From Bacteroidia bacterium (GTDB taxonomy: Bacteria > Bacteroidota > Bacteroidia > NS11-12g > UBA9320), in contig JABDQY010000007.1 in the NCBI GenBank assembly GCA_013042025.1, positions 1 through 45,918 of the forward strand: DNA of 45,918 nucleotides. The letters are read 5' to 3'. Within the stretch, counting starts at the first letter, position 1; each line of letters opens with the position of its first letter. The notes under the pieces are model-generated. The model was given only the letters and a program-made list of their open reading frames with translations. It ran no database searches and was not told where the DNA came from. A program made the position numbers and the translations under genes. This document shows, piece after piece, positions 20,916 through 45,918 of the stretch.

Positions 20916-21694
20916 TGATAGAGAATCCGATTATTGAAGCTCATAATTTAACAGTATTGTATGGTAGGAAACCAGCACTTTGGAACGTAGATTTTTCTCT
21001 TCCAAGAGGAAAAGTAATTGGAATTATGGGCCCAAACGGAAGTGGTAAAAGCACGCTGTTGAAAGCCATAATGGGCGTTGCAACTCCTACATCAGGTTAC
21101 ACAAAAGTATATGACAGAGAGCTTGATGAAGTTCGTGAAAAAATAAGTTATGTACCACAACGTCAAGACATTGATTGGGATTTCCCCGCAAGTGTTTGGG
21201 ACGTTGTTTCAATGGGTAGATTTCAAAAAAGAGGTCTTTTTAAAAAATTGACCTCAGAAGATAAGGATATTATTGCTGAGAGTCTTGAAAAGGTAAACAT
21301 GTTAGGATATTCGAAAAGGCAAATAAGTCAGCTGTCTGGGGGACAACAACAACGTGTTTTCTTAGCAAGAGCATTAGCCCAACAAGGAGATCTATTTCTT
21401 ATGGATGAACCTTTTGCAGGTGTTGACATTTCAACAGAAGAGATGATTATCTCGCTTTTAAAAGAGATGAAAGATGCAGGTAAAACATTGGTAATTGTAC
21501 ATCATGATTTACATACTGCCCAATCGTATTTTGATTGGTTGGTTTTACTTAATACGCGATTGGTTGCGGCAGGACCAGTTTCTGAGGTATTTAACGACCA
21601 GGTACTCACCGATACGTATGGTGGTAAACTAACAACCATATCAAAAATAAGTCAAGAACTAGAAAATAAAGAATTCCCAATACGTCACAAATAA
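20915..21694 (+). CDS. metal ABC transporter ATP-binding protein
   Basis: Walker A GPNGSGKST, signature LSGGQQQRV, Walker B LFLMDEPF. 1-nt start/stop overlaps on both sides. Confidence 0.9.
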   Translation: MIENPIIEAHNLTVLYGRKPALWNVDFSLPRGKVIGIMGPNGSGKSTLLKAIMGVATPTSGYTKVYDRELDEVREKISYVPQRQDIDWDFPASVWDVVSMGRFQKRGLFKKLTSEDKDIIAESLEKVNMLGYSKRQISQLSGGQQQRVFLARALAQQGDLFLMDEPFAGVDISTEEMIISLLKEMKDAGKTLVIVHHDLHTAQSYFDWLVLLNTRLVAAGPVSEVFNDQVLTDTYGGKLTTISKISQELENKEFPIRHK

Positions 21695-22983
21695 TGAATC
21701 TTTGGGAACATATCACCACATTTTTTTCTGTAGAAAACTACAACTTATTTGTTATCAGTATTGGTTCAGGTATTTTGTGTTTTGCAGCTGGTGTTGTGGG
21801 TACATTCACTTATTTGAGAAAACGAGCTTTAATTGGTGATGTTATATCTCATTCAGTGCTTCCAGGAGTTGCAATTGCTTTTATGTTAGCTGGAGTTAAA
21901 AATCCAGTTTACTTTTTAATTGGAGCTATTTTATCTGGGCTATTATCTATATGGATAGTTGATTTTGTACAAGCAAAATCAAAATTAAAACCAGATACAA
22001 TTTTAGCATTAACATTAAGTGTGTTTTTTGGTGTTGGAATTGTTTTGCTAACCAAAATACAACACAGCGGAAATGCGGCCCAAAGTGGTCTTGACAGTTT
22101 CCTGTTCGGGAAGGCTGCATCTATGAGTCTTGGAGATGTTAAACTTTTTTCAATCATAGCAATCGTCAATATCATATTCATTACTATATTCTTAAGAGGT
22201 TTTAGTATGATAAGTTTTGATGAAAATTATGCTAAAGGAATTGGGTTTAATACTACATTTATAAAGTCATTTCTTGCACTACTTACTGTAGTAACCGTTG
22301 CTATTGGAGTGCAAGCAGTTGGAGTAGTTCTAATGGCAGCATTACTAATAACTCCTGCGGCAGGTGCACGTTTCTTAACAAACTCGATAGGAAGAATGCT
22401 TTTAATTTCAGGGGTATTTGGATTTGTTAGTGGATGGATTGGAGTATTTATTAGTTATAGCGGGAACGGCATGCCTACTGGACCTTGGATTGTTGTTGCA
22501 CTATCGCTATTTACATTAATAGCCATTCTTTTTGGACGAGACAGAGGAGTAATTGCACGTTGGAAACTTCGAAAGTCGAATAACATAAAAATCAACAATG
22601 AAAATGTATTAAAAGATATTTATAAGTTGGCAGATAAAGGAAGGAATACGCTCTCAATTGCACAAATTATTGAAAAGGAGAAGTATCGAGCACCGGTTCT
22701 AATTTCAATTTTAAACAGACTAGAAAAAAACGACTTTATTGATCAAATTCGTGGGCTTGTTATTCTTAATGAAAAAGGTAAGATAGCGGCCAGAGAAGTA
22801 ATACGAAAGCACCGTCTATGGGAACTTTATCTTTCTAAATACTTTCAACTCGAAGCAGATCATTTGCATGATGATGCAGAAGGTATTGAGCACGTTATCA
22901 CACCGGAAATTGAAAAACATTTATTAAAACTGTTGCAGTATCCGGAGAAAGATCCTCATCAAAGTGAAATTCCATATGAATGA
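21694..22983 (+). CDS. metal ABC transporter permease (ABC-3/TroC-like) fused to a C-terminal DtxR/MntR-type metalloregulator domain
   Basis: 429 aa. The first ~290 aa are a multi-helix ABC-3 permease. Residues ~300-429 carry a winged-helix segment plus RKHRLWELYLSKYF...HLHDDAEGIEHVITPEI...PEKDPHQSEIP, which is the DtxR/MntR dimerisation/metal-site signature. Confidence 0.85.
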   Translation: MNLWEHITTFFSVENYNLFVISIGSGILCFAAGVVGTFTYLRKRALIGDVISHSVLPGVAIAFMLAGVKNPVYFLIGAILSGLLSIWIVDFVQAKSKLKPDTILALTLSVFFGVGIVLLTKIQHSGNAAQSGLDSFLFGKAASMSLGDVKLFSIIAIVNIIFITIFLRGFSMISFDENYAKGIGFNTTFIKSFLALLTVVTVAIGVQAVGVVLMAALLITPAAGARFLTNSIGRMLLISGVFGFVSGWIGVFISYSGNGMPTGPWIVVALSLFTLIAILFGRDRGVIARWKLRKSNNIKINNENVLKDIYKLADKGRNTLSIAQIIEKEKYRAPVLISILNRLEKNDFIDQIRGLVILNEKGKIAAREVIRKHRLWELYLSKYFQLEADHLHDDAEGIEHVITPEIEKHLLKLLQYPEKDPHQSEIPYE

Positions 22984-32914: not shown

Positions 32915-33685
32915 ATGAAAAAAACACTTACTCTTCTCTTTCTTATTGTGTCGTCTGCTTCATTATTTGCACAAAAAACAATTGATGTTTCATTAGACGC
33001 TATCGTTTCTCCCACGGAACTACTTTCAGATGCATCCACAGGTACAGCTATTCCTATAAAATTTGCATGCAAAAACAATGGTACAGACATCATAGAAATT
33101 GGCGACACTTTATTTTGGAGTGCATTAGTGCTAGATATTGCTACGAGCAATTTAATATTAGAAATTCCACAATCTGCAAGTTCTGGAAACGGATATTTAA
33201 CAGTTGCTTCAAAACAAGTTGCAGTTGGTGATACAATTCATGTAGGAAATAATTTTAACACAGGCTCTATTGTAACGCAATCAAGAGCTATACGTTTCGG
33301 TGGGATATGCAGTGCATGGAATAGAACTGATGGAGTTACTGATCCAGATACCGATAATAATTCAAATTTCGCTGATATTACGTGGTACAATCAATATCAA
33401 AATGGGGTTTCGGTTGCAGATGTAGAATACGATAACAACATTGCAGTTTATCCTAATCCAGCATCAGAAGAATTAAATATCAAATTACTGTTAACTCAAT
33501 TTGCTGATGTTCAAATAGAAATATTGGATTTAGCAGGTAAAATTATTTTATCTGAAAATGTAAGTTCTTCTATCACTAATAATAACTATGTAATTGACGT
33601 AAATTCAGTTCCTAATGGAATGTATATCGTTAAAGTTACAAATGGAGAAAATGTAAGTACTTCAAAAATTAGCATCGCTCATTAA
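32915..33685 (+). CDS. secreted protein with T9SS type-A C-terminal sorting domain
   Basis: 256 aa with signal peptide ending FAQ. The C-terminus VYPNPASEELNIKL...PNGMYIVKVTNGENVSTSKISIAH matches the Por secretion-tail pattern. Confidence 0.7.
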   Translation: MKKTLTLLFLIVSSASLFAQKTIDVSLDAIVSPTELLSDASTGTAIPIKFACKNNGTDIIEIGDTLFWSALVLDIATSNLILEIPQSASSGNGYLTVASKQVAVGDTIHVGNNFNTGSIVTQSRAIRFGGICSAWNRTDGVTDPDTDNNSNFADITWYNQYQNGVSVADVEYDNNIAVYPNPASEELNIKLLLTQFADVQIEILDLAGKIILSENVSSSITNNNYVIDVNSVPNGMYIVKVTNGENVSTSKISIAH

Positions 33686-37671: not shown

Positions 37672-38532
37672 ATGAAATACATCTTACTCCTAGCTATTAT
37701 TTTTTTTTCTAGTGTAACGTATGCTCAAGATTTAGATTTATTAGAGGAGGAGGACGAGGAGACTATAGAGTATACCTCAGCAACATTTAAAACTAATCGC
37801 GTAATAAATGGCCATAGTATTGAAACAGTTGCCAAACGTGAATTTGACTTAAAAATTTCTCATCGCTTTGGCTTCCTAAGTACGGGTGCCTACGATTTTT
37901 TTGGCCTTGATCAGGCAACTTTGCGAATTGGTGGCGACTACGGGATTACTGATAACATTAATATTGGTGTTGGAAGAAGCAACGTTGCAAAAACATATGA
38001 TGGTTTTGTTAAATACAAGTTGTTACGTCAAAGTTCTGGTTTAAAGAAAATGCCAATAACAGCAACATGGATAAGCCATATGGGTGTTACTACTTTAAAA
38101 TGGACCAAACCAGATAGAGAGAACAAACCTAGCAGTAGACTTCATTATACACATCAATTGCTATTAGCTAGGAAATTTACCGAAGGTTTGAGCATTCAAC
38201 TAAGTCCAACGGTGGTGCATAAAAACCTGGTTGATTCTAGCTCTTTTAAAAATGACATCCTTTCTGTTGGTATTGGTTTGAGACAAAAATTAACCACCAG
38301 AACTACACTAAATTTAGAGTATTTCTATGTTCTCCCAAACCAAATTTCAAATGAGAATACCAACGCACTTTCAGTTGGCTTTGACATTGAAACTGGCGGT
38401 CATATATTTCAGTTATTCTTTACCAATTCTGCAGCTCCCTTTGAAAAAGGTTTTATTACAGATACTAAAGCCAAATGGACTGAAGGAGATGTTCGGTTTG
38501 GATTTAACATAGCCAGAATCTTTAATTTTTAA
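37672..38532 (+). CDS. DUF5777-like outer-membrane beta-barrel protein
   Basis: 286 aa with signal peptide ending YAQ and an acidic stretch. Motifs ISHRFG...FFGLD, GGHIFQLFFTNS and a C-terminal ...IFNF. Confidence 0.55.
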   Translation: MKYILLLAIIFFSSVTYAQDLDLLEEEDEETIEYTSATFKTNRVINGHSIETVAKREFDLKISHRFGFLSTGAYDFFGLDQATLRIGGDYGITDNINIGVGRSNVAKTYDGFVKYKLLRQSSGLKKMPITATWISHMGVTTLKWTKPDRENKPSSRLHYTHQLLLARKFTEGLSIQLSPTVVHKNLVDSSSFKNDILSVGIGLRQKLTTRTTLNLEYFYVLPNQISNENTNALSVGFDIETGGHIFQLFFTNSAAPFEKGFITDTKAKWTEGDVRFGFNIARIFNF

Positions 38533-38587
38533 GTAACTTTGATAGCACGCCTCACATATTTCACTCATTAAACAGTTAAAATACATA

Positions 38588-41056
38588 TTGGTACTTCTTT
38601 TTGTGTCTCTTTTTTGGAGTGCAAAAGCAACCCACGTTGTAGGAGGAGAAATTATGTACAAGGCAATTAATCCAAGTACAAATCTGTATGAGGTTACACT
38701 AAAACTTTACATTGATTGTGAAAATGGGACTTTTGGAGCGATTCAACTCGATACTACTGCCTTTATTGGAATTTACGATGGAGGCAATTACAGTTTAATA
38801 TCTGACTATGAAATTAAGCGAACAGGCCCAGTTAGGCTTAATAAGGTTAACTACAAATGCGTTAAACCTCCAACTGGAATTTGTGTAGATGAATATATCT
38901 ATTCGTTTAGAACTATAATAGATCCAGGAACAAGTGGTAAAATTATTTCATACCAACGCTGTTGTAGAAATAAAACGATTAATAATTTACTAAATGTTGA
39001 ATCTAGCGGTATTACCATTTGGACATCTATACCGCCTACAGGTACAACAAACAACAGTGCTGTTTTTGAGAATCTCCCTCCAAATTACGTGTGTCTTAAT
39101 GCACCATTTAGTATGGATCATTCTGCTACTGATATTGACGGAGACTCACTAGTTTACTCACTAACTGCACCATATTTGGGTGGTATCCCTTCAGATGCAA
39201 AACCAGAACCATCATTCGCTACACAACCTCCATATAACAATGTAGCATGGCGTTCACCTTATTCCGCAAACTATCAAATGGGTGGGGCACCAGGACTTTA
39301 CATTAATCCAAGCAGTGGAGAAGTTAGCATTACCCCAAATACTGAAGGTCAATTTGTTGTGGGTATAACAGTAAAAGAATATCGGAACGGTCAATTAGTT
39401 GGTGAAACACGACGAGATTATCAAATTAATGTAATTGAATGTGTCTTTGATATAGTTGCTGACTATACCATTGATGGGGGAACTGCGGTAGCAGGTAGAT
39501 ATACTTTCGAATGTAGAGACACTGTTTTCTTTAAAAACAGAAGTTATAGTAAAGAACCAGCCACCTATTTTTGGGATTTTGGAGATCCAACAACTACCGA
39601 TGATACTTCTTCGTTAGAAAATCCTTTTTGGGTATATCCAGGCAATGGAGACTATGATGTTACACTCACGGTTAAATCTTCTATTTGTGAAGATGACTAT
39701 CAATATGGTGTTAGAATTCGTTCCAGTAAGCCTTTTGAGTTGGGCCCTGATCTAGTTTTTTGTGATGAATTCACACAACGCCTGAGTACAGAAGCACCAG
39801 ATGCTATAACAACTCTATGGAATACTGGAGAGACTAGTTTTACTATAAATGCCAAAGACACCGGAACTTATTCCGTTACCATATCTTATGGTAATTGTTC
39901 CTATGCAGACACGGTGCATCTAGCGTACAACTTTTTACCTCCATTCGAAATACCAAAAGACAGCCTTTTCTGTGAAGTAGTAGATATGATTATAGATGTT
40001 GGTGTTTCAGGACTTAATTATCAATGGAGTACATCCTTAGCAGATACCAACCAAAGTGTAAGAGTAACTGAAGCAGGCACTTACACCGTTTATGTAGATA
40101 ATGGTGATTGTTATGAGCAACAAAGTATTCGACTTTGGCAAGCATCATCACCATTAGTTGAAGACACATTTTATTGTGGTGAATTTGATCATCCAGTTAG
40201 TGTTGGTTCTTTTGAGGAAGGGGAATATTTATGGTCTAACAATTCAACAAACCAAGCCACTTCATATACAACGGGAGGTAATCATTGGGTTCAGGTTAAA
40301 CAAAGGCATTGTATAAGCATAGATTCATTCTTTATTCTGAATCCTGTTATTAATCTAGAACTAGGCCCTGACGAGCATTTCTGTGACTTTGTAAACAAGG
40401 AGTTAGATGCAGGTGAAGATGGGGTTACTTTTGATTGGAGTTCTGATCAGTCTGATAGGGTTATTACTGCCATTGCTCCGGGAATCTATTCTGTAGTTGT
40501 AACAGACCAATACGGCTGCACAGCTGAAGATACCATAACCCTTACAATGAGTAATTCTCCAACTTTTGAATTGGGGGATGATACAACAATATGTCTACGA
40601 TCTCCAACTACTTTAGAAGCACCTGAAGGCTACACTGCTTACGAATGGAATACTGGACAATTAGAAAGAGCAATTATAGTAGAACAACAAGGGGAATACA
40701 TAGCAACCATTACTGACGGATTCGGCTGCACTGGCACGGACACGTTGTTTGTAACAGTGGATCCCGATGCCTTACCAAATGATCTATATATCGCAAATGC
40801 ATTTTCACCAAATGCAGATAACTTGAATGACTTATTTCCTTTTCAAGAAGTCATTACACAACCAGGATACTATGTAGCTATATTTTCTAGATGGGGTGAA
40901 AAGGTATTTGACTCCAGAACATCTGATTCTCAAAATTGGGATGGTTTTTATAAAGGTGAAAAAGTTCCTAATCAAACCTTTATATATTACATCTATTTTA
41001 GAGGGTGTGATGGAAACGCACGAACTAAAAAGGGTACAGTTAACCCATTGTATTAA
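38588..41056 (+). CDS. large surface protein with PKD domain, five Cys-pair repeats and T9SS type-B (gliding-motility) C-terminal domain
   Basis: 822 aa with TTG start and a short signal peptide ending AKA. Contains N-terminal THVVGGEIMYK, a PKD-like FWDFGD...GDYDVTLTV segment, tandem repeats, and the C-terminus NAFSPNADNLNDLFPF...WDGFYKGEKVP...FIYYIYF...GTVNPLY. Confidence 0.75.
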   Translation: MVLLFVSLFWSAKATHVVGGEIMYKAINPSTNLYEVTLKLYIDCENGTFGAIQLDTTAFIGIYDGGNYSLISDYEIKRTGPVRLNKVNYKCVKPPTGICVDEYIYSFRTIIDPGTSGKIISYQRCCRNKTINNLLNVESSGITIWTSIPPTGTTNNSAVFENLPPNYVCLNAPFSMDHSATDIDGDSLVYSLTAPYLGGIPSDAKPEPSFATQPPYNNVAWRSPYSANYQMGGAPGLYINPSSGEVSITPNTEGQFVVGITVKEYRNGQLVGETRRDYQINVIECVFDIVADYTIDGGTAVAGRYTFECRDTVFFKNRSYSKEPATYFWDFGDPTTTDDTSSLENPFWVYPGNGDYDVTLTVKSSICEDDYQYGVRIRSSKPFELGPDLVFCDEFTQRLSTEAPDAITTLWNTGETSFTINAKDTGTYSVTISYGNCSYADTVHLAYNFLPPFEIPKDSLFCEVVDMIIDVGVSGLNYQWSTSLADTNQSVRVTEAGTYTVYVDNGDCYEQQSIRLWQASSPLVEDTFYCGEFDHPVSVGSFEEGEYLWSNNSTNQATSYTTGGNHWVQVKQRHCISIDSFFILNPVINLELGPDEHFCDFVNKELDAGEDGVTFDWSSDQSDRVITAIAPGIYSVVVTDQYGCTAEDTITLTMSNSPTFELGDDTTICLRSPTTLEAPEGYTAYEWNTGQLERAIIVEQQGEYIATITDGFGCTGTDTLFVTVDPDALPNDLYIANAFSPNADNLNDLFPFQEVITQPGYYVAIFSRWGEKVFDSRTSDSQNWDGFYKGEKVPNQTFIYYIYFRGCDGNARTKKGTVNPLY
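39734..40759 (+). repeat. five tandem ~68-aa protein-level repeats inside the 822-aa gene
   Basis: Each unit reads F/L-E-L-G-(P)D...(F)C......(Y/L)(Q/E/L)W(N/S)(T/S)...G.Y.V.(V/I)....(G)C...D(T/S)(I/L). Examples are FELGPDLVFCDEF..LWNTGE..GTYSVTISYGNCSYADTV and LELGPDEHFCDFV..FDWSSDQ..GIYSVVVTDQYGCTAEDTI. Confidence 0.6.
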
Positions 41057-42893: not shown

Positions 42894-43355
42894 ATGCAAC
42901 TAGCTGAAGCTATATCCTTATTTGAATTAACGGTGTCAAAACACCTTCAATTAAAACCGGAACAAACGCGTTGTGAAAATGAAGGAGAATACATAATTAA
43001 TAGAGATAAAACTGAACTTTATGTAGATTTATGGCAACCGAAAGAACCAACTCAGTGGCAATATTTTGACCGTGAGAAAGTAGCTGGAGTATTTCAGATT
43101 GTTGCTCCAGTCTGTTTCTATCCACAGCCAGAACATCTACCTATGTTTTTAGAAGAACTTGCTCACTTAAACTTCCATTTGTTTTTTGGTAGTTTCATAG
43201 CAAATTCTCAAGAGAAAGTAATAAGCATTCAATACAAAAGGGTGCTAGATGGATTAAACGATACTGAGATTATTGAGCCATTAGAAGCTATCGGATATTA
43301 TGCGGAGAATCTCAAAGAATACCTTGCTGAAAAGTACCACGTAAAAAAAATCTAA
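42894..43355 (+). CDS. hypothetical cytoplasmic protein (possibly YbjN/T3SS-chaperone-like fold)
   Basis: 153 aa with no signal peptide. The assignment rests only on size and an ...ELAHLNFHLFFGSF... pattern reminiscent of YbjN-domain proteins. Confidence 0.3.
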   Translation: MQLAEAISLFELTVSKHLQLKPEQTRCENEGEYIINRDKTELYVDLWQPKEPTQWQYFDREKVAGVFQIVAPVCFYPQPEHLPMFLEELAHLNFHLFFGSFIANSQEKVISIQYKRVLDGLNDTEIIEPLEAIGYYAENLKEYLAEKYHVKKI

Positions 43356-43406
43356 GATTTAGGCAACTATTCCTGAATTAATAACATCTACCTAATAACT
43401 CTCGCA

Positions 43407-43949
43407 ATGAGCACTAGTGAAAATAAAGATGAAATATCATTAATTGAAGCTTGCCAAAAGGGAGATAATAAAGCATTAAAGAAGTTATACGATATACATT
43501 CAGGAACTATGTACGCCATTTGTTTACGATATATGAATAATGAAGACGAAGCCAAAGATGCATTGCAAGAAGGCTTTATCAAGGTATTCAAGAATATTGA
43601 TAAATTTAGGTTTTCTGGAAGTTTTGAAGGTTGGCTAAAACGCATATTTGTTAATTCGAGCATAGAATTGATCCGCAAAAGAAAAATGCATTTAGATGTT
43701 AATGAAATGAGGGGTGATATGCAATTAACCGATTCTATTGAAGTTGGTTCTATTGATGCAGAAAAAATGATGCAATTGGTTCAAAAATTACCTGAAGGAT
43801 ATCGAACAGTTTTTAACATGTTTGTAATAGATGGATTTAGCCATAAAGAAATAAGTACTGAATTAGAAATATCTGAAAGCACTTCAAAATCACAATTGTT
43901 CAAAGCAAGAAAACAATTGCAGGTTTGGTTAAAAGGATGGTTTGAGTAA
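43407..43949 (+). CDS. ECF-type RNA polymerase sigma-70 factor
   Basis: 180 aa. Region 2 is ...YAICLRYMNNEDEAKDALQEGFIKVFKNIDKF. Region 4 is LPEGYRTVFNMFVIDGFSHKEISTELEISESTSKSQLFKARKQL. Confidence 0.85.
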   Translation: MSTSENKDEISLIEACQKGDNKALKKLYDIHSGTMYAICLRYMNNEDEAKDALQEGFIKVFKNIDKFRFSGSFEGWLKRIFVNSSIELIRKRKMHLDVNEMRGDMQLTDSIEVGSIDAEKMMQLVQKLPEGYRTVFNMFVIDGFSHKEISTELEISESTSKSQLFKARKQLQVWLKGWFE

Positions 43950-45211
43950 TGAAAAAATTTAAAGACATCGAAGAATTTGAAAATTTGTTGAAAGACAATT
44001 TAGGGAAACATAGCGTTCCTGCTCCACCAGATGTTTGGTCTGGAGTGTCTTCTTCATTTGCTGGAAATTCCGGCAGTCTCTTTTCTCAACTCACTTCATA
44101 TTTTTCTTCAGTATCTAACATTGTGAAGGTTGCATTTTTTGTTGGAGGTATTTCAGCTGCAGGAATTGTTTTGTATAACGAAAACACGAAAGATCTTTCA
44201 AACAATTCGAATGCAGATTTAAATACTGAAGCAGTTGATGCAACAAATAATACTTCTTCTAGTAAAGACATTAAAACAACAAATGGAACGCAATCAGAAA
44301 ACAAATCTGATTTAAATGAAAATGTACCTAGCACTGATAACTCTTCAGTCAATACCAATAATAATCCATCTGGCAATCAAAGTAATACTAACCTAGATAA
44401 TAATTACATTACTGTTGTTGACGAACAATCAAACGGTGACGAGACCCCTGCATCTGAGTCCAATCAAAACCATAATGTCTTTGAAAAGTCTCAAATTGTT
44501 CTTTCTAACAACAAACCATGTATTGGTGAAAAAATAACACTAAGCAATACGCTTAATCAATTAGGTGATTGGTACATAAATGGTAAAAAAGTTAGTTCAA
44601 ACAAAAAGTTCATTAGTTATGTTTGGTCAGAAGAGAGAGATGCACTAATTGAATTAAAATACGATAGTATAACAATTAACAAAACTGTTGCCACAGTTTC
44701 TACCCATACTAGAATTGTTTCTAACAATCCAACTTCAGATAGCTATCAATTTACGCTAGATAATAGTGACGTTATTGCCAACTGGTATGTTGATGGTAAA
44801 CTGGTTACAACAAATGCAAAACAATTAAGCTATCAATTTAAGCAAGTTGGCATGCACCACGTAAAAGCAGTGCCTATAAACCATTCATGTACTTCACCTG
44901 CGGAAACTCATGTTACTATTCAACCAAAAGGCGAACTAAAAACATATACCATTTTCACCCCAAATGGTGATGGGAAAAACGATACTTATATCGTTGAAAT
45001 TAGCAATTACGAAACGTATTCTATTCAAATATTTAATAGCGAAAATGTTAAAGTTTTTGCATCAAATAATCCAAAAATAAGTTGGAACGGAACAGAATTC
45101 AATACTGGCAGAGAATGTAGTAATGGCGAGTATGTAGCTAAAATAGCATACAAGCTTATAGGGGAAGAGTCCACTATAAAAAACATTAAATTAACCTTAA
45201 TCCGAAATTAG
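43949..45211 (+). CDS. sigma-coupled single-pass membrane protein (putative anti-sigma) with T9SS type-B C-terminal domain
   Basis: 420 aa with a TAATG overlap with the sigma gene. It has 58 hydrophilic N-terminal residues and one TM helix (nt 44123-44176). An N/S/T-rich linker and two internal repeats follow. The C-terminus reads YTIFTPNGDGKNDTYIVE...WNGTEFNTGRECSNGEYVAKIAY...IKLTLIRN. Confidence 0.6.
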   Translation: MKKFKDIEEFENLLKDNLGKHSVPAPPDVWSGVSSSFAGNSGSLFSQLTSYFSSVSNIVKVAFFVGGISAAGIVLYNENTKDLSNNSNADLNTEAVDATNNTSSSKDIKTTNGTQSENKSDLNENVPSTDNSSVNTNNNPSGNQSNTNLDNNYITVVDEQSNGDETPASESNQNHNVFEKSQIVLSNNKPCIGEKITLSNTLNQLGDWYINGKKVSSNKKFISYVWSEERDALIELKYDSITINKTVATVSTHTRIVSNNPTSDSYQFTLDNSDVIANWYVDGKLVTTNAKQLSYQFKQVGMHHVKAVPINHSCTSPAETHVTIQPKGELKTYTIFTPNGDGKNDTYIVEISNYETYSIQIFNSENVKVFASNNPKISWNGTEFNTGRECSNGEYVAKIAYKLIGEESTIKNIKLTLIRN

Positions 45212-45282
45212 ACTTGAATTATACAATGAACCCGAGTAAATTTACAAACTTTTATATTTTGAAAAAAAACAGCAACATACAT

Positions 45283-45918
45283 ATGAAAAAATCAATTATT
45301 AGAGGATTGTTTTCCTTTGCTACACTATTGATGTTAATTGTCAGTAGTTATCAAGCAAACGCACAAGCAGTCTGTAACCCTATCGTGATTGACAAATCAG
45401 GAAATGAAGTTACAACGGCTACTTTCTGTGAAGACGAGCAAATTCAATTTAAGGCAAATTCGCCTGGTTACACAAGTACTTCAGTACTTTGGGACTTTGG
45501 CTTTATGGGTCAAACAAGTGACAAGGCTGATGTTCAGAGAGCCTACTCTCAAGCAGGTGTTTATACTGTGACTTTTACAGGTGTAGGTCCTGCAGGTAAT
45601 TGTAACAAAACGCTTACAATAACCATTGAAGAAAGCCCAGATATTGATATTGAACTTATAGATCCTGATTTTCAGTGTTTTGAAGGCAACAATTTTTGTT
45701 TTGTAGATAAAAGTACAGCTACAACAGGAAGTACCATTGTTGGTCGTACTCGTATTTTTAGTGATGGTTTCAAAGACACTACAGGTACAGATACATTCTG
45801 TCACTCAACACAAGATCCGTCTGGTGGATTTTTTGATTTATTTATTCAATTGGAAGATGCAAATGGTTGTGTATCGGAAACAACAATCTCAGACTATTTC
45901 TATGTAACTCCTAAGCTG
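45283..45918 (+). CDS. secreted PKD-domain surface protein, 5' part (runs off the window)
   Basis: Frame 1 is open from the ATG at 45283 to the window end (212 codons, hand-translated) and is not in the supplied track. Signal peptide MKKSIIRGLFSFATLLMLIVSSYQANAQ. PKD-like VLWDFGFMGQTSD...AGVYTVTFTG. Confidence 0.65.
   Translation, partial: MKKSIIRGLFSFATLLMLIVSSYQANAQAVCNPIVIDKSGNEVTTATFCEDEQIQFKANSPGYTSTSVLWDFGFMGQTSDKADVQRAYSQAGVYTVTFTGVGPAGNCNKTLTITIEESPDIDIELIDPDFQCFEGNNFCFVDKSTATTGSTIVGRTRIFSDGFKDTTGTDTFCHSTQDPSGGFFDLFIQLEDANGCVSETTISDYFYVTPKL

Follow-up and report, generated by a model that had tools for sequence, protein, structure and literature searches.

We describe a gene pair near the end of a 45,918-nt stretch of DNA from a Bacteroidia bacterium (contig JABDQY010000007.1; hereafter the window), in which a gene for an extracytoplasmic function (ECF) sigma factor is followed directly by a gene for a 420-residue protein, here called the partner (43949-45211, + strand). 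The partner has a hydrophilic N-terminus, one transmembrane (TM) helix, a disordered linker, two immunoglobulin (Ig)-like repeats and a terminal CHU_C domain of the class borne by type-B cargo of a type IX secretion system (T9SS). The features of the two genes, with the evidence used to place them, are the following.

43407..43949, + strand: sigma factor of 180 aa, sigma-70 family, ECF class (group 4) (Pfam and TIGR02937 matches, orthologues).
43949..44122, + strand: partner residues 1-58, conserved hydrophilic N-terminal motif, putative cytoplasmic sigma-binding region (alignment of 23 homologues).
44123..44182, + strand: partner residues 59-78, single TM helix, a putative signal anchor, N-in by charge bias (Kyte-Doolittle hydropathy).
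44183..44485, + strand: partner residues 79-179, N/S/T-rich disordered linker (predicted local distance difference test, pLDDT; alignment).
44486..44938, + strand: partner residues 180-330, two tandem Ig-like beta-sandwich domains forming an internal repeat (AlphaFold2, AF2; repeat alignment).
44939..45208, + strand: partner residues 331-420, type-B-class T9SS C-terminal domain (CTD), a variant without the NRWG loop (CHU_C, TIGR04131).

The product of 43407-43949 consists, within its 180 residues, of regions 2 and 4 of sigma-70 only (Pfam Sigma70_r2, 55.7 bits; Sigma70_r4_2, 62.1 bits) and scores 94.8 bits against TIGR02937, for which the cut-off is 42.9. This is the build of the group 4 (ECF) factors, which are usually about 180-200 residues long and contain only these two regions. 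All of the more specific models, SigW, RpoE, Sig70_bacteroi1 and PG0214/GFO_1088 included, gave scores below their cut-offs (TIGR02985, 92.2 against 126.4; NF058625, 81.7 against 130; SigW, 100.3 against 209), and the protein was accordingly placed in no named equivalog or subfamily. Its nearest solved relatives are SigW, SigH and RpoE/SigE; of these, SigW and RpoE are regulated through membrane anti-sigma factors.

The stop codon of the sigma gene (TAA, 43947-43949) and the start codon of the partner gene (ATG, 43949-43951) overlap by 1 nt, as the original prediction had noted and as both the raw sequence and the map of open reading frames (ORFs) bear out. A scan of reference genomes returned 80 loci (loci are designated here by L numbers). 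In L001-L012 there is a sigma orthologue, 60-88% identical, and in all 12 loci with upstream DNA only a few bases separate its end from the start of the partner gene; because these loci have their housekeeping synteny in common with the window (dihydroorotase and a 153-residue ORF), they are counted as one lineage. Ten further loci have different neighbours and a sigma factor of 42-53% identity (L015, L017, L019, L020, L022, L023, L024, L029, L074 and L076), and in each of them the sigma gene is followed directly by a protein of 346-416 residues with the same architecture. Six proteins of a shorter, minimal form that is described below (P0049, P0078, P0060, P0106, P0126 and P0176), which come from different branches, also lie directly after an ECF sigma gene. 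Altogether, the sigma gene is adjacent in 28 of the 28 CTD-bearing relatives with upstream DNA, the two genes overlapping or lying no more than 10 nt apart, a count that takes in related genomes, so that the independent units are the six or more divergent subfamilies (at least six) from which these relatives come; across them the identity of the sigma factor falls to 42% and that of the partner to about 24%. The pairing of a sigma gene with a CTD-bearing TM partner, a point on which the original prediction was to stand or fall, is therefore conserved, and the partner gene has the place expected of an anti-sigma gene, being immediately downstream of the sigma gene, co-oriented with it and translationally coupled to it. 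At two loci the sigma orthologue is divided between two reading frames (L008, 5454-5994, from the complete metagenome-assembled genome (MAG) chromosome CP121331; L015, 5468-5972), which reflects either a frameshift, making it a pseudogene, or an error of assembly.

The partner had been described as having no N-terminal signal peptide, and there is indeed no hydrophobic stretch in its first 30 residues. Residues 1-58 are among the best-conserved regions of the protein in the alignment of homologues, and the 23 homologues aligned give the consensus MKKFKxISEFExLLKDxLxxHSxPAPPDVWSxV, which we refer to as the N-motif. AF2 places short helices of low confidence at residues 7-19 and 30-35. The region contains no Cys, and an H-x3-C-x2-C motif sought in it was not found. 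Partners in the divergent modules carry a related motif, ...[DE]xLF[KR]xxLxxxxxxPxxxxWxxI..., sometimes in duplicate, and the N-motif is found as well on P0091 (see below), the gene of which also adjoins a sigma gene and the C-terminal module of which is another one. Duplication, repetition by a factor of four to eight in some proteins and occurrence on P0091 are what would be expected of a modular sigma-facing domain. We infer that the N-motif binds the sigma factor, and we regard it as quite likely that the two proteins are a sigma/anti-sigma pair.

The single hydrophobic helix of the original prediction was located at residues 59-78 (nt 44123-44182), with a mean Kyte-Doolittle hydropathy of 1.99; it is the sole hydrophobic segment of the protein and is conserved among the homologues as KVALFAGGIxAxGxVxY. 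Exactly one hydrophobic segment is present in 109 of 117 family members, the median start being residue 53, and a signal-peptide-like stretch in the first 30 residues is present in none of the 117. The 15-residue flanks of the helix carry, across these members, a net charge of +0.84 (N side) and -0.98 (C side), and on the strength of these flanks the partner would fit a single-pass topology with the N-terminus in and the C-terminus out. When the homologue alignment was inspected by eye no small-x-small cleavage motif was seen just after the helix, and the sequence past a conserved Y-x-EN is hypervariable. The partner, with its conserved, hydrophilic first 58 residues and no cleavage-type motif after the helix, is thus without the cleavable Sec signal peptide of T9SS cargo.

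The N/S/T-rich linker and the two internal repeats that had been read from the sequence are both real. For residues 26-176 AF2 gives a pLDDT below 50, and the linker is hypervariable in the alignment. In the minimal subfamily a spacer of 116-168 residues (median 133, n=73) separates TM helix and CTD, with 75% polar or small residues and an unconserved sequence; a length that is kept while the sequence is not is what a periplasm-spanning tether would show. Residues 180-420 are modelled as three confident beta-sandwich domains (pLDDT about 90), of which the first two are the internal repeat, with 33% identity over 45 residues (E=5e-8). A Foldseek search of the partner AF2 models against the PDB, which offers no solved type-B CTD for comparison, returned generic Ig, FN3 and PKD folds only, PorZ and GhpA included; the generic tandem Ig/FN3 matches of the two Ig-like domains include the base of the Aureispira GhpA grappling hook.

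The CTD is a variant of the type-B class. In the partner (residues 331-402 of 420) it scores 50.6 bits against Pfam CHU_C (PF13585; cut-off 27) and 33.7 bits against TIGR04131 (cut-off 35). A C-terminus with no score against type-B models would have told against the original prediction; with CHU_C it does score. The original prediction had likened it to the C-terminus of the 822-residue protein encoded at 38588-41056; the family pattern is common to the two, but they are only 22% identical. Four blocks are kept in the partner, namely PNGDGKND, a beta-strand, WNG (W-N-G) and GEY (G-x-Y), and where cargo has FNRWGEKVF the partner in the window has FNSENVKVF, so that NRWG is replaced by NSENV. 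When partner CTDs are set against cargo CTDs of the same loci, PNGDGxND, W(N/D)G and GxY are kept and the (F/Y)NRWGE loop is replaced by unrelated residues. The pattern [RK][WYF]G was found in 0 of 22 sigma-linked partners of the fetched loci, as against 51 of the 60 cargo CTDs of those loci (the other nine read NWG or RNG) and 9 of 12 cargo-type matches of the first homologue search. The loss of the cargo-type NRWG loop is systematic and sets the sigma-linked CTDs apart as a subclass. Five motifs have been described in type-B CTDs, of which A and C lie in loops and the other three, B, D and E, on strands, and each is reported to be required for secretion of a SprB-CTD fusion (Paillat et al. 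2025, PMC12618676). Judged by its position, the NRWG loop would be motif C of that paper, the text of which does not give the motif sequences. The partner CTD, with this loop replaced, would then not contain the full set of five, and since the loop is missing the sigma-linked CTDs may dock without being exported.

Of the two type-B cargo families compared with it, the partner CTD is closer to that of the adhesin, the surface protein encoded downstream. It is 35-44% identical to the CTDs of four orthologues of this adhesin (the CTD of the window's own adhesin lies beyond the window end) and 22-26% identical to the CTD family of the 822-residue type-B cargo, and when adhesin and other cargo CTDs are compared with the partner CTD within one genome the identities are 33% versus 21% (L081) and 38% versus 20% (L082).

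The homologue search found about 40 full-length relatives of 405-422 residues, with identities of 32-63% and a CHU_C domain in every case, and the C-terminal 240 residues of the partner are conserved in their alignment. The conservation of the whole architecture in these homologues is more than chance. Members of the family are annotated only as 'gliding motility-associated' or hypothetical. The partners of the divergent modules (346-416 residues) have the related N-motif, one TM helix, a variable middle and a CHU_C end, and the weaker matches of the first search proved to be a minimal form of 274-315 residues (about 285), made up of the N-motif, the TM helix, a polar spacer and the CTD only. 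This minimal form accounts for 434 clusters at 90% identity (E<=1e-10). In an AF2 model of one such protein, built with 19 aligned relatives, the last ~90 residues fold with a pLDDT above 90 and two short N-terminal helices are present, residues 31-194 being disordered; the CTD is the only folded periplasmic part.

An exhaustive search of 1.84 billion representatives with a profile of the N-motif and TM helix gave 1739 matches at E<=1e-3, counted at the level of 50% identity, and 156 at E<=1e-10; a separate profile of the N-motif gave a single match only in an index of 5.8 billion proteins. The top match of the representative search, P0087, was rejected as a repetitive false positive. Among the 133 best new matches, 104 carry CHU_C, none carries a type-A CTD and five carry an outer-membrane beta-barrel, the remainder being mostly fragments. 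Pfam FlgD_ig also matches 32 of these 133 proteins, in the short subfamily; if the match falls on the CTD, as the architecture of 279-285 residues suggests, the CTD subclass would sit between the CHU_C and FlgD-Ig-like profiles. The proteins P0091, P0093, P0110 and P0156 (with locus L092, 2432-4882) constitute a sister class in which 4-8 tandem N-motifs and a single TM helix precede a long polar linker, and an outer-membrane OMP_b-brl_2 barrel takes the C-terminal place of the CTD. P0091 lies directly after an ECF sigma gene; the class suggests that the sigma-linked proteins which bridge inner and outer membrane are a wider group than the CTD-bearing partners. Bacteroidota-type CHU_C genes also turn up in MAG records under the titles Rhizobium sp., Saccharospirillaceae and Bordetella parapertussis (L020, L023, L041 and L071), with the full sigma/partner/adhesin module in L020 and L023, and these bins are probably mislabelled or contaminated.

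Three further features flank the pair.

43362..43390, + strand: motif GGCAAC-N16-CATCTA, like an ECF-type promoter, upstream of the sigma gene (conserved blocks).
45212..45282, + strand: intergenic region between the partner and adhesin genes, with the conserved blocks ACTTGAA...TAAATTTACAAACTTTT (conserved in L002-L012).
45283..45918, + strand: 5' end of a gene for a giant PKD-repeat surface protein with a type-B CTD, cut by the window end (PKD, orthologues).

GGCAAC-N16-CATCTA has one match in the whole 46-kb window, that upstream of the sigma gene. In L002-L012, and likewise in the distant loci L017, L019, L020, L022, L023, L024, L029 and L074, the intergenic DNA that precedes the sigma gene diverges but keeps the two blocks of the motif, GGCAAC(C/T) and, 15-16 nt later, (C/A)ATCT(A/T). 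L086, L090 and L091, which are loci of the short family, have variants of the form GCAAC...GTCT upstream of the sigma gene; a promoter-like motif of this kind is present in nearly all of the subfamilies examined. GGCAAC-N16-CATCT(A) would fit the -35 and -10 elements of an autoregulated ECF-type promoter. A search of the window found no ECF-type motif before the genes at 38588 and 45283. The blocks at 45212..45282 resemble the Bacteroidota primary-sigma promoter type TTG / TAnnTTTG (compare PMC9723704). No terminator-like hairpin was found between the partner and adhesin genes (45212..45282), so that read-through from the sigma operon is possible.

Both of the flanking genes that had been put forward as surface-protein genes and possible targets encode proteins of the kind described. 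The ORF from 45283 encodes a PKD protein with a signal-peptide-like N-terminus, orthologues of which are 1981-2024 residues long and end in CHU_C; that at 38588-41056 combines PKD with CHU_C (54.1 bits; TIGR04131, 47.5). As a target the former is plausible, since it is syntenic in divergent modules and there overlaps or abuts the partner gene, but the latter is unlikely, because housekeeping genes intervene and there is no ECF-type motif upstream of it. A giant gene of the 45283 type lies downstream of the partner in the divergent loci L015, L017, L019, L020, L022 and L088. Type-B cargo genes of other kinds take this place in some further subfamilies. The next ORF overlaps the partner gene in L015, L017 and L020, the gap to the next gene is 3 nt in L076 and 24 nt in L088, and L019 and L022 have the same downstream gene as the other giant-adhesin modules. 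The sigma gene, the partner gene and a type-B cargo gene apparently form one operon in several subfamilies, and the giant adhesin at 45283 is a probable co-regulated cargo. The 285-residue subfamily has no adjacent cargo gene in the loci examined.

Elsewhere in the window, 32915-33685 encodes a 256-residue protein with a type-A sorting domain (Por_Secre_tail, 63 bits; TIGR04183, 52.8 bits), and since CTD proteins of types A and B are both encoded the organism makes T9SS cargo of both types. A gene for a DUF5777 membrane beta-barrel (37672-38532, 312 bits) lies directly upstream of the 822-residue cargo gene, and the two (37672-41056) are syntenic in L007, L009-L012 and L081-L083; by analogy with type-B cargo and its shuttle, they could be a pair of cargo and outer-membrane partner. 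The barrel was considered as a PorP/SprF shuttle and rejected, there being no PorP/SprF match in NCBIfam. Just upstream of the sigma promoter, the 153-residue ORF at 42894-43355 has no Pfam or NCBIfam match; the orthologous loci have it at 69-82% identity and the distant L015, in the corresponding position, at 35%, and it may belong to the sigma/partner module. An unusual ORF of 429 residues at 21694-22983 fuses an ABC-3 metal-transporter permease (201 bits) to the C-terminal metal-binding/dimerisation domain of an iron-dependent repressor (82 bits).

The pair is probably best explained as an autoregulated ECF sigma factor and membrane anti-sigma factor of an undescribed type, the CTD of which would dock on the T9SS, and we put the probability of this explanation at roughly 45%. 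The N-motif would keep the sigma factor on the cytoplasmic side of the inner membrane, in which the single TM helix would anchor the partner; the disordered linker of about 100 residues would span the periplasm; and the type-B-class CTD, here after two Ig-like domains, would dock in the outer membrane on the type-B branch of the T9SS, at a PorP/SprF-like shuttle, the SprA translocon or both. The state of the tether would then alter when the CTD is captured or pulled, or when real cargo displaces it, and the altered tether would lead to release of the sigma factor by proteolysis, by analogy with SigW/RsiW and RpoE/RseA; release is probably proteolytic, as it is for SigW and RpoE, the nearest characterised relatives of the sigma factor. 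Once free, it would transcribe its own operon and, through read-through or co-transcription, the adjacent giant type-B adhesin, the expression of which would in this way be tied to the availability of an export route. A regulatory role for the CTD is favoured by the minimal subfamily, since there the CTD is all that folds in the periplasm, and the anti-sigma/T9SS reading as a whole by the prevalence of CHU_C, with no type-A CTD, among the best N-motif representatives. The coupling of the two genes, the behaviour of the N-motif, the charge bias around the TM helix, the promoter-like motif, the linkage to type-B cargo, the relatives of the sigma factor and the precedent of PorA (see below) speak for this reading as well. 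That the pair is functionally coupled to the T9SS at all is, in our estimate, a little short of an even bet.

Within this explanation the CTD could be exported or pulled, as the original prediction had it, or could bind as a decoy; we lean towards docking with no export, because the NRWG loop is missing and because an engineered, inner-membrane-tethered form of PorA, the CTD protein of Porphyromonas gingivalis discussed below, still signals and is not exported (PMC12152298). A more elaborate version, which we hold to be rather unlikely, would make the partner a trans-envelope pseudo-substrate of the T9SS and a counterpart of FlgM: with the sigma factor sequestered, the NRWG-less CTD would reach the translocon or shuttle on a tether of conserved length, a working T9SS, by engaging the CTD productively or pulling on it with its motor, would cause the tether to be cleaved and the sigma factor to be freed, and giant type-B adhesins would be made only when, and as far as, the export route is free, the barrel-bearing sister class acting likewise for insertion into the outer membrane.

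A number of observations weigh against the anti-sigma/T9SS explanation. On partner residues 1-80 no anti-sigma domain of Pfam or NCBIfam was matched at E<=1, the profile of the N-motif found no relative among PDB sequences, and the N-motif is very short and is repeated up to 8 times in some proteins, unlike classical anti-sigma domains. The TIGR04131 score of the CTD lies just below the cut-off; [RK][WYF]G remains in 2 of 96 sigma-linked CTDs among the N-motif representatives, having been lost in the other 94, and the sigma-linked CTDs may not be T9SS substrates at all. The adhesin gene has no ECF motif upstream and carries a primary-sigma-like promoter element of its own. Every member listed, by cluster names and homologue searches, has a MAG or metagenome as its source, most often under the label Bacteroidia or Flavobacteriales. 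There are no T9SS core genes in the window, where the presence of a T9SS is indicated only by the type-A and type-B cargo, and no PorP/SprF-like gene was found within +/-10 kb of the pair in the orthologous loci. An adjacent cognate gene for a PorP/SprF-like shuttle is usual, not obligatory, for type-B cargo. Orphan type-B substrates are known (PMC12618676).

Some of these points are shared by an alternative that we consider distinctly less probable, in which the sigma/anti-sigma pair is real and the CTD-like domain is a generic periplasmic beta-sandwich sensor or an outer-membrane anchor with no link to the T9SS; the partner could then be an envelope-spanning tether that reports the width of the periplasm, the integrity of the outer membrane or some ligand. 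The want of the cargo-type NRWG loop and the TIGR04131 score agree with this, as do the generic folds returned by Foldseek, the conservation of the spacer in length and not in sequence, and the 285-residue subfamily without an adjacent cargo gene; the sister class, furthermore, swaps the CTD for an outer-membrane beta-barrel, and anchoring in the outer membrane could be the common denominator. Against this alternative speak the four of the five type-B sequence blocks, PNGDGxND included, that are kept in a domain at the extreme C-terminus, the specific association with CHU_C (104 of 133; no other type of Ig domain prevails), the type-B cargo genes that repeatedly share the operon, and the likeness of the CTD to that of the neighbouring adhesin, which is its closest.

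The partner could also be no anti-sigma factor and simply the first gene of the regulon, that is, an envelope or surface protein that is signal-anchored or later cleaved, and possibly exported by the T9SS, with the sigma factor controlled in some other way. The N-terminus that no anti-sigma model matches, the capacity of the N-motif for many-fold repetition, and a periplasmic part that looks like a small adhesin (Ig-like domains and a CTD, annotated only as gliding-motility-associated) would all suit such a protein. We judge it improbable nonetheless: the gene lies immediately downstream with a stop/start overlap in 28 of 28 relatives, a conserved cytoplasmic motif would be purposeless in pure cargo, the minimal subfamily of linker and CTD has no passenger domain and so nothing to display, and the tethered PorA mentioned above is not exported. 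Least credible is the suggestion, raised in the original prediction as a way in which it might fail, that the start was mis-called and that the in-frame GTG at 44123, before the hydrophobic segment, begins an ordinary signal peptide on an ordinary T9SS cargo. Since the 58 codons upstream of this GTG are conserved in about 40 full-length homologues, with a recognisable motif in many hundreds more, it is ruled out as the start; moreover, the ATG overlaps the sigma stop in most orthologues, and no conserved site of signal-peptidase type follows the helix as judged by eye.

To our knowledge, the way in which Bacteroidota match the synthesis of giant T9SS adhesins and enzymes to secretion capacity is largely obscure outside the PorXY-SigP-PorA system of one pathogen. 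Uncultured Bacteroidota of aquatic origin carry the gene pair widely, and it may connect gene expression with the machinery that exports surface proteins. If the anti-sigma/T9SS explanation is right, the 434 minimal-form clusters and 1739 N-motif representatives would represent a widespread sensor wired directly to the T9SS, in which a secretion signal has taken on a signalling role; a short cytoplasmic motif associated with sigma factors would be newly defined; and the GGCAAC-N16-CATCTA promoter would offer a simple read-out of type-B T9SS activity. Even without the link to the T9SS, a large and unannotated family of envelope-spanning ECF sigma partners is delineated.

The original prediction knew of no circuit of this kind, and our literature search likewise found no anti-sigma factor with a T9SS CTD; in the passages searched of the paper that re-classifies the ECF factors no such partner is mentioned. 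In general kind the pair fits an ECF sigma factor with a membrane anti-sigma factor, as exemplified by RseA/RpoE and RsiW/SigW, where the anti-sigma factor is a single-pass membrane protein under regulated proteolysis. With these it shares the order of sigma and then anti-sigma gene, translational coupling, an N-in single-pass partner and, as far as the promoter-like motif suggests, an autoregulated operon. It differs from them in the N-region, which has no recognisable class I or ZAS domain, no model match and no Cys/His motif, and in the periplasmic part, which is a disordered tether with a secretion-type CTD. FecR/FecI with the TonB-dependent transducers and RsgI/SigI of clostridia are anti-sigma systems that signal across the envelope. 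The partner would resemble them in that an extracytoplasmic end contacts a component of the outer membrane or surface and relays its state to an ECF-type sigma factor; it is, however, without the FecR/DUF4974 domain or a carbohydrate-binding sensor, and the proposed contact is the type-B shuttle or translocon of the T9SS.

In concept, close parallels are FlgM/sigma-28 of flagellar export and BtrA/BtrS of Bordetella, which belongs to the type III secretion system. In both, the acceptance of the anti-sigma factor by a secretion machine sets the activity of the sigma factor, and the late genes need a working export route. The likeness goes no further than the concept, for neither has a sequence relationship to the partner: FlgM and BtrA are soluble cytoplasmic proteins that are exported whole through a one-step system, whereas the partner spans the membrane and its export is only proposed. 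A membrane-spanning design would be needed here because the T9SS acts only from the periplasm.

Among T9SS proteins, the partner has in common with cargo of the SprB/SprF type (PMC12618676, PMC9143113) the Pfam family of the CTD, its place at the extreme C-terminus and the PNGDGxND, WxG and GxY blocks, and differs from it in having no cleavable signal peptide, no NRWG loop and no adjacent shuttle gene that could be found; all T9SS effectors are described as possessing a Sec signal peptide (PMC12618676). The pair therefore stands outside both the known anti-sigma domains and canonical T9SS cargo, the latter by signal peptide, NRWG loop and TIGR04131 score. The system that it resembles in its logic is PorA-PorXY-SigP of P. 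gingivalis, in which the CTD of PorA is a periplasmic regulatory ligand upstream of the ECF sigma factor SigP (PMC7712824, PMC12152298), so that there too a T9SS CTD serves as a periplasmic signal that ends in an ECF sigma factor. PorA, however, is normally a type-A CTD cargo with a cleavable signal peptide, and acts through the two-component proteins PorY and PorX and not through an anti-sigma factor, whereas the partner described here bears a type-B-class CTD, would be naturally tethered to the inner membrane, and unites that CTD in one polypeptide with the sigma-adjacent cytoplasmic motif.

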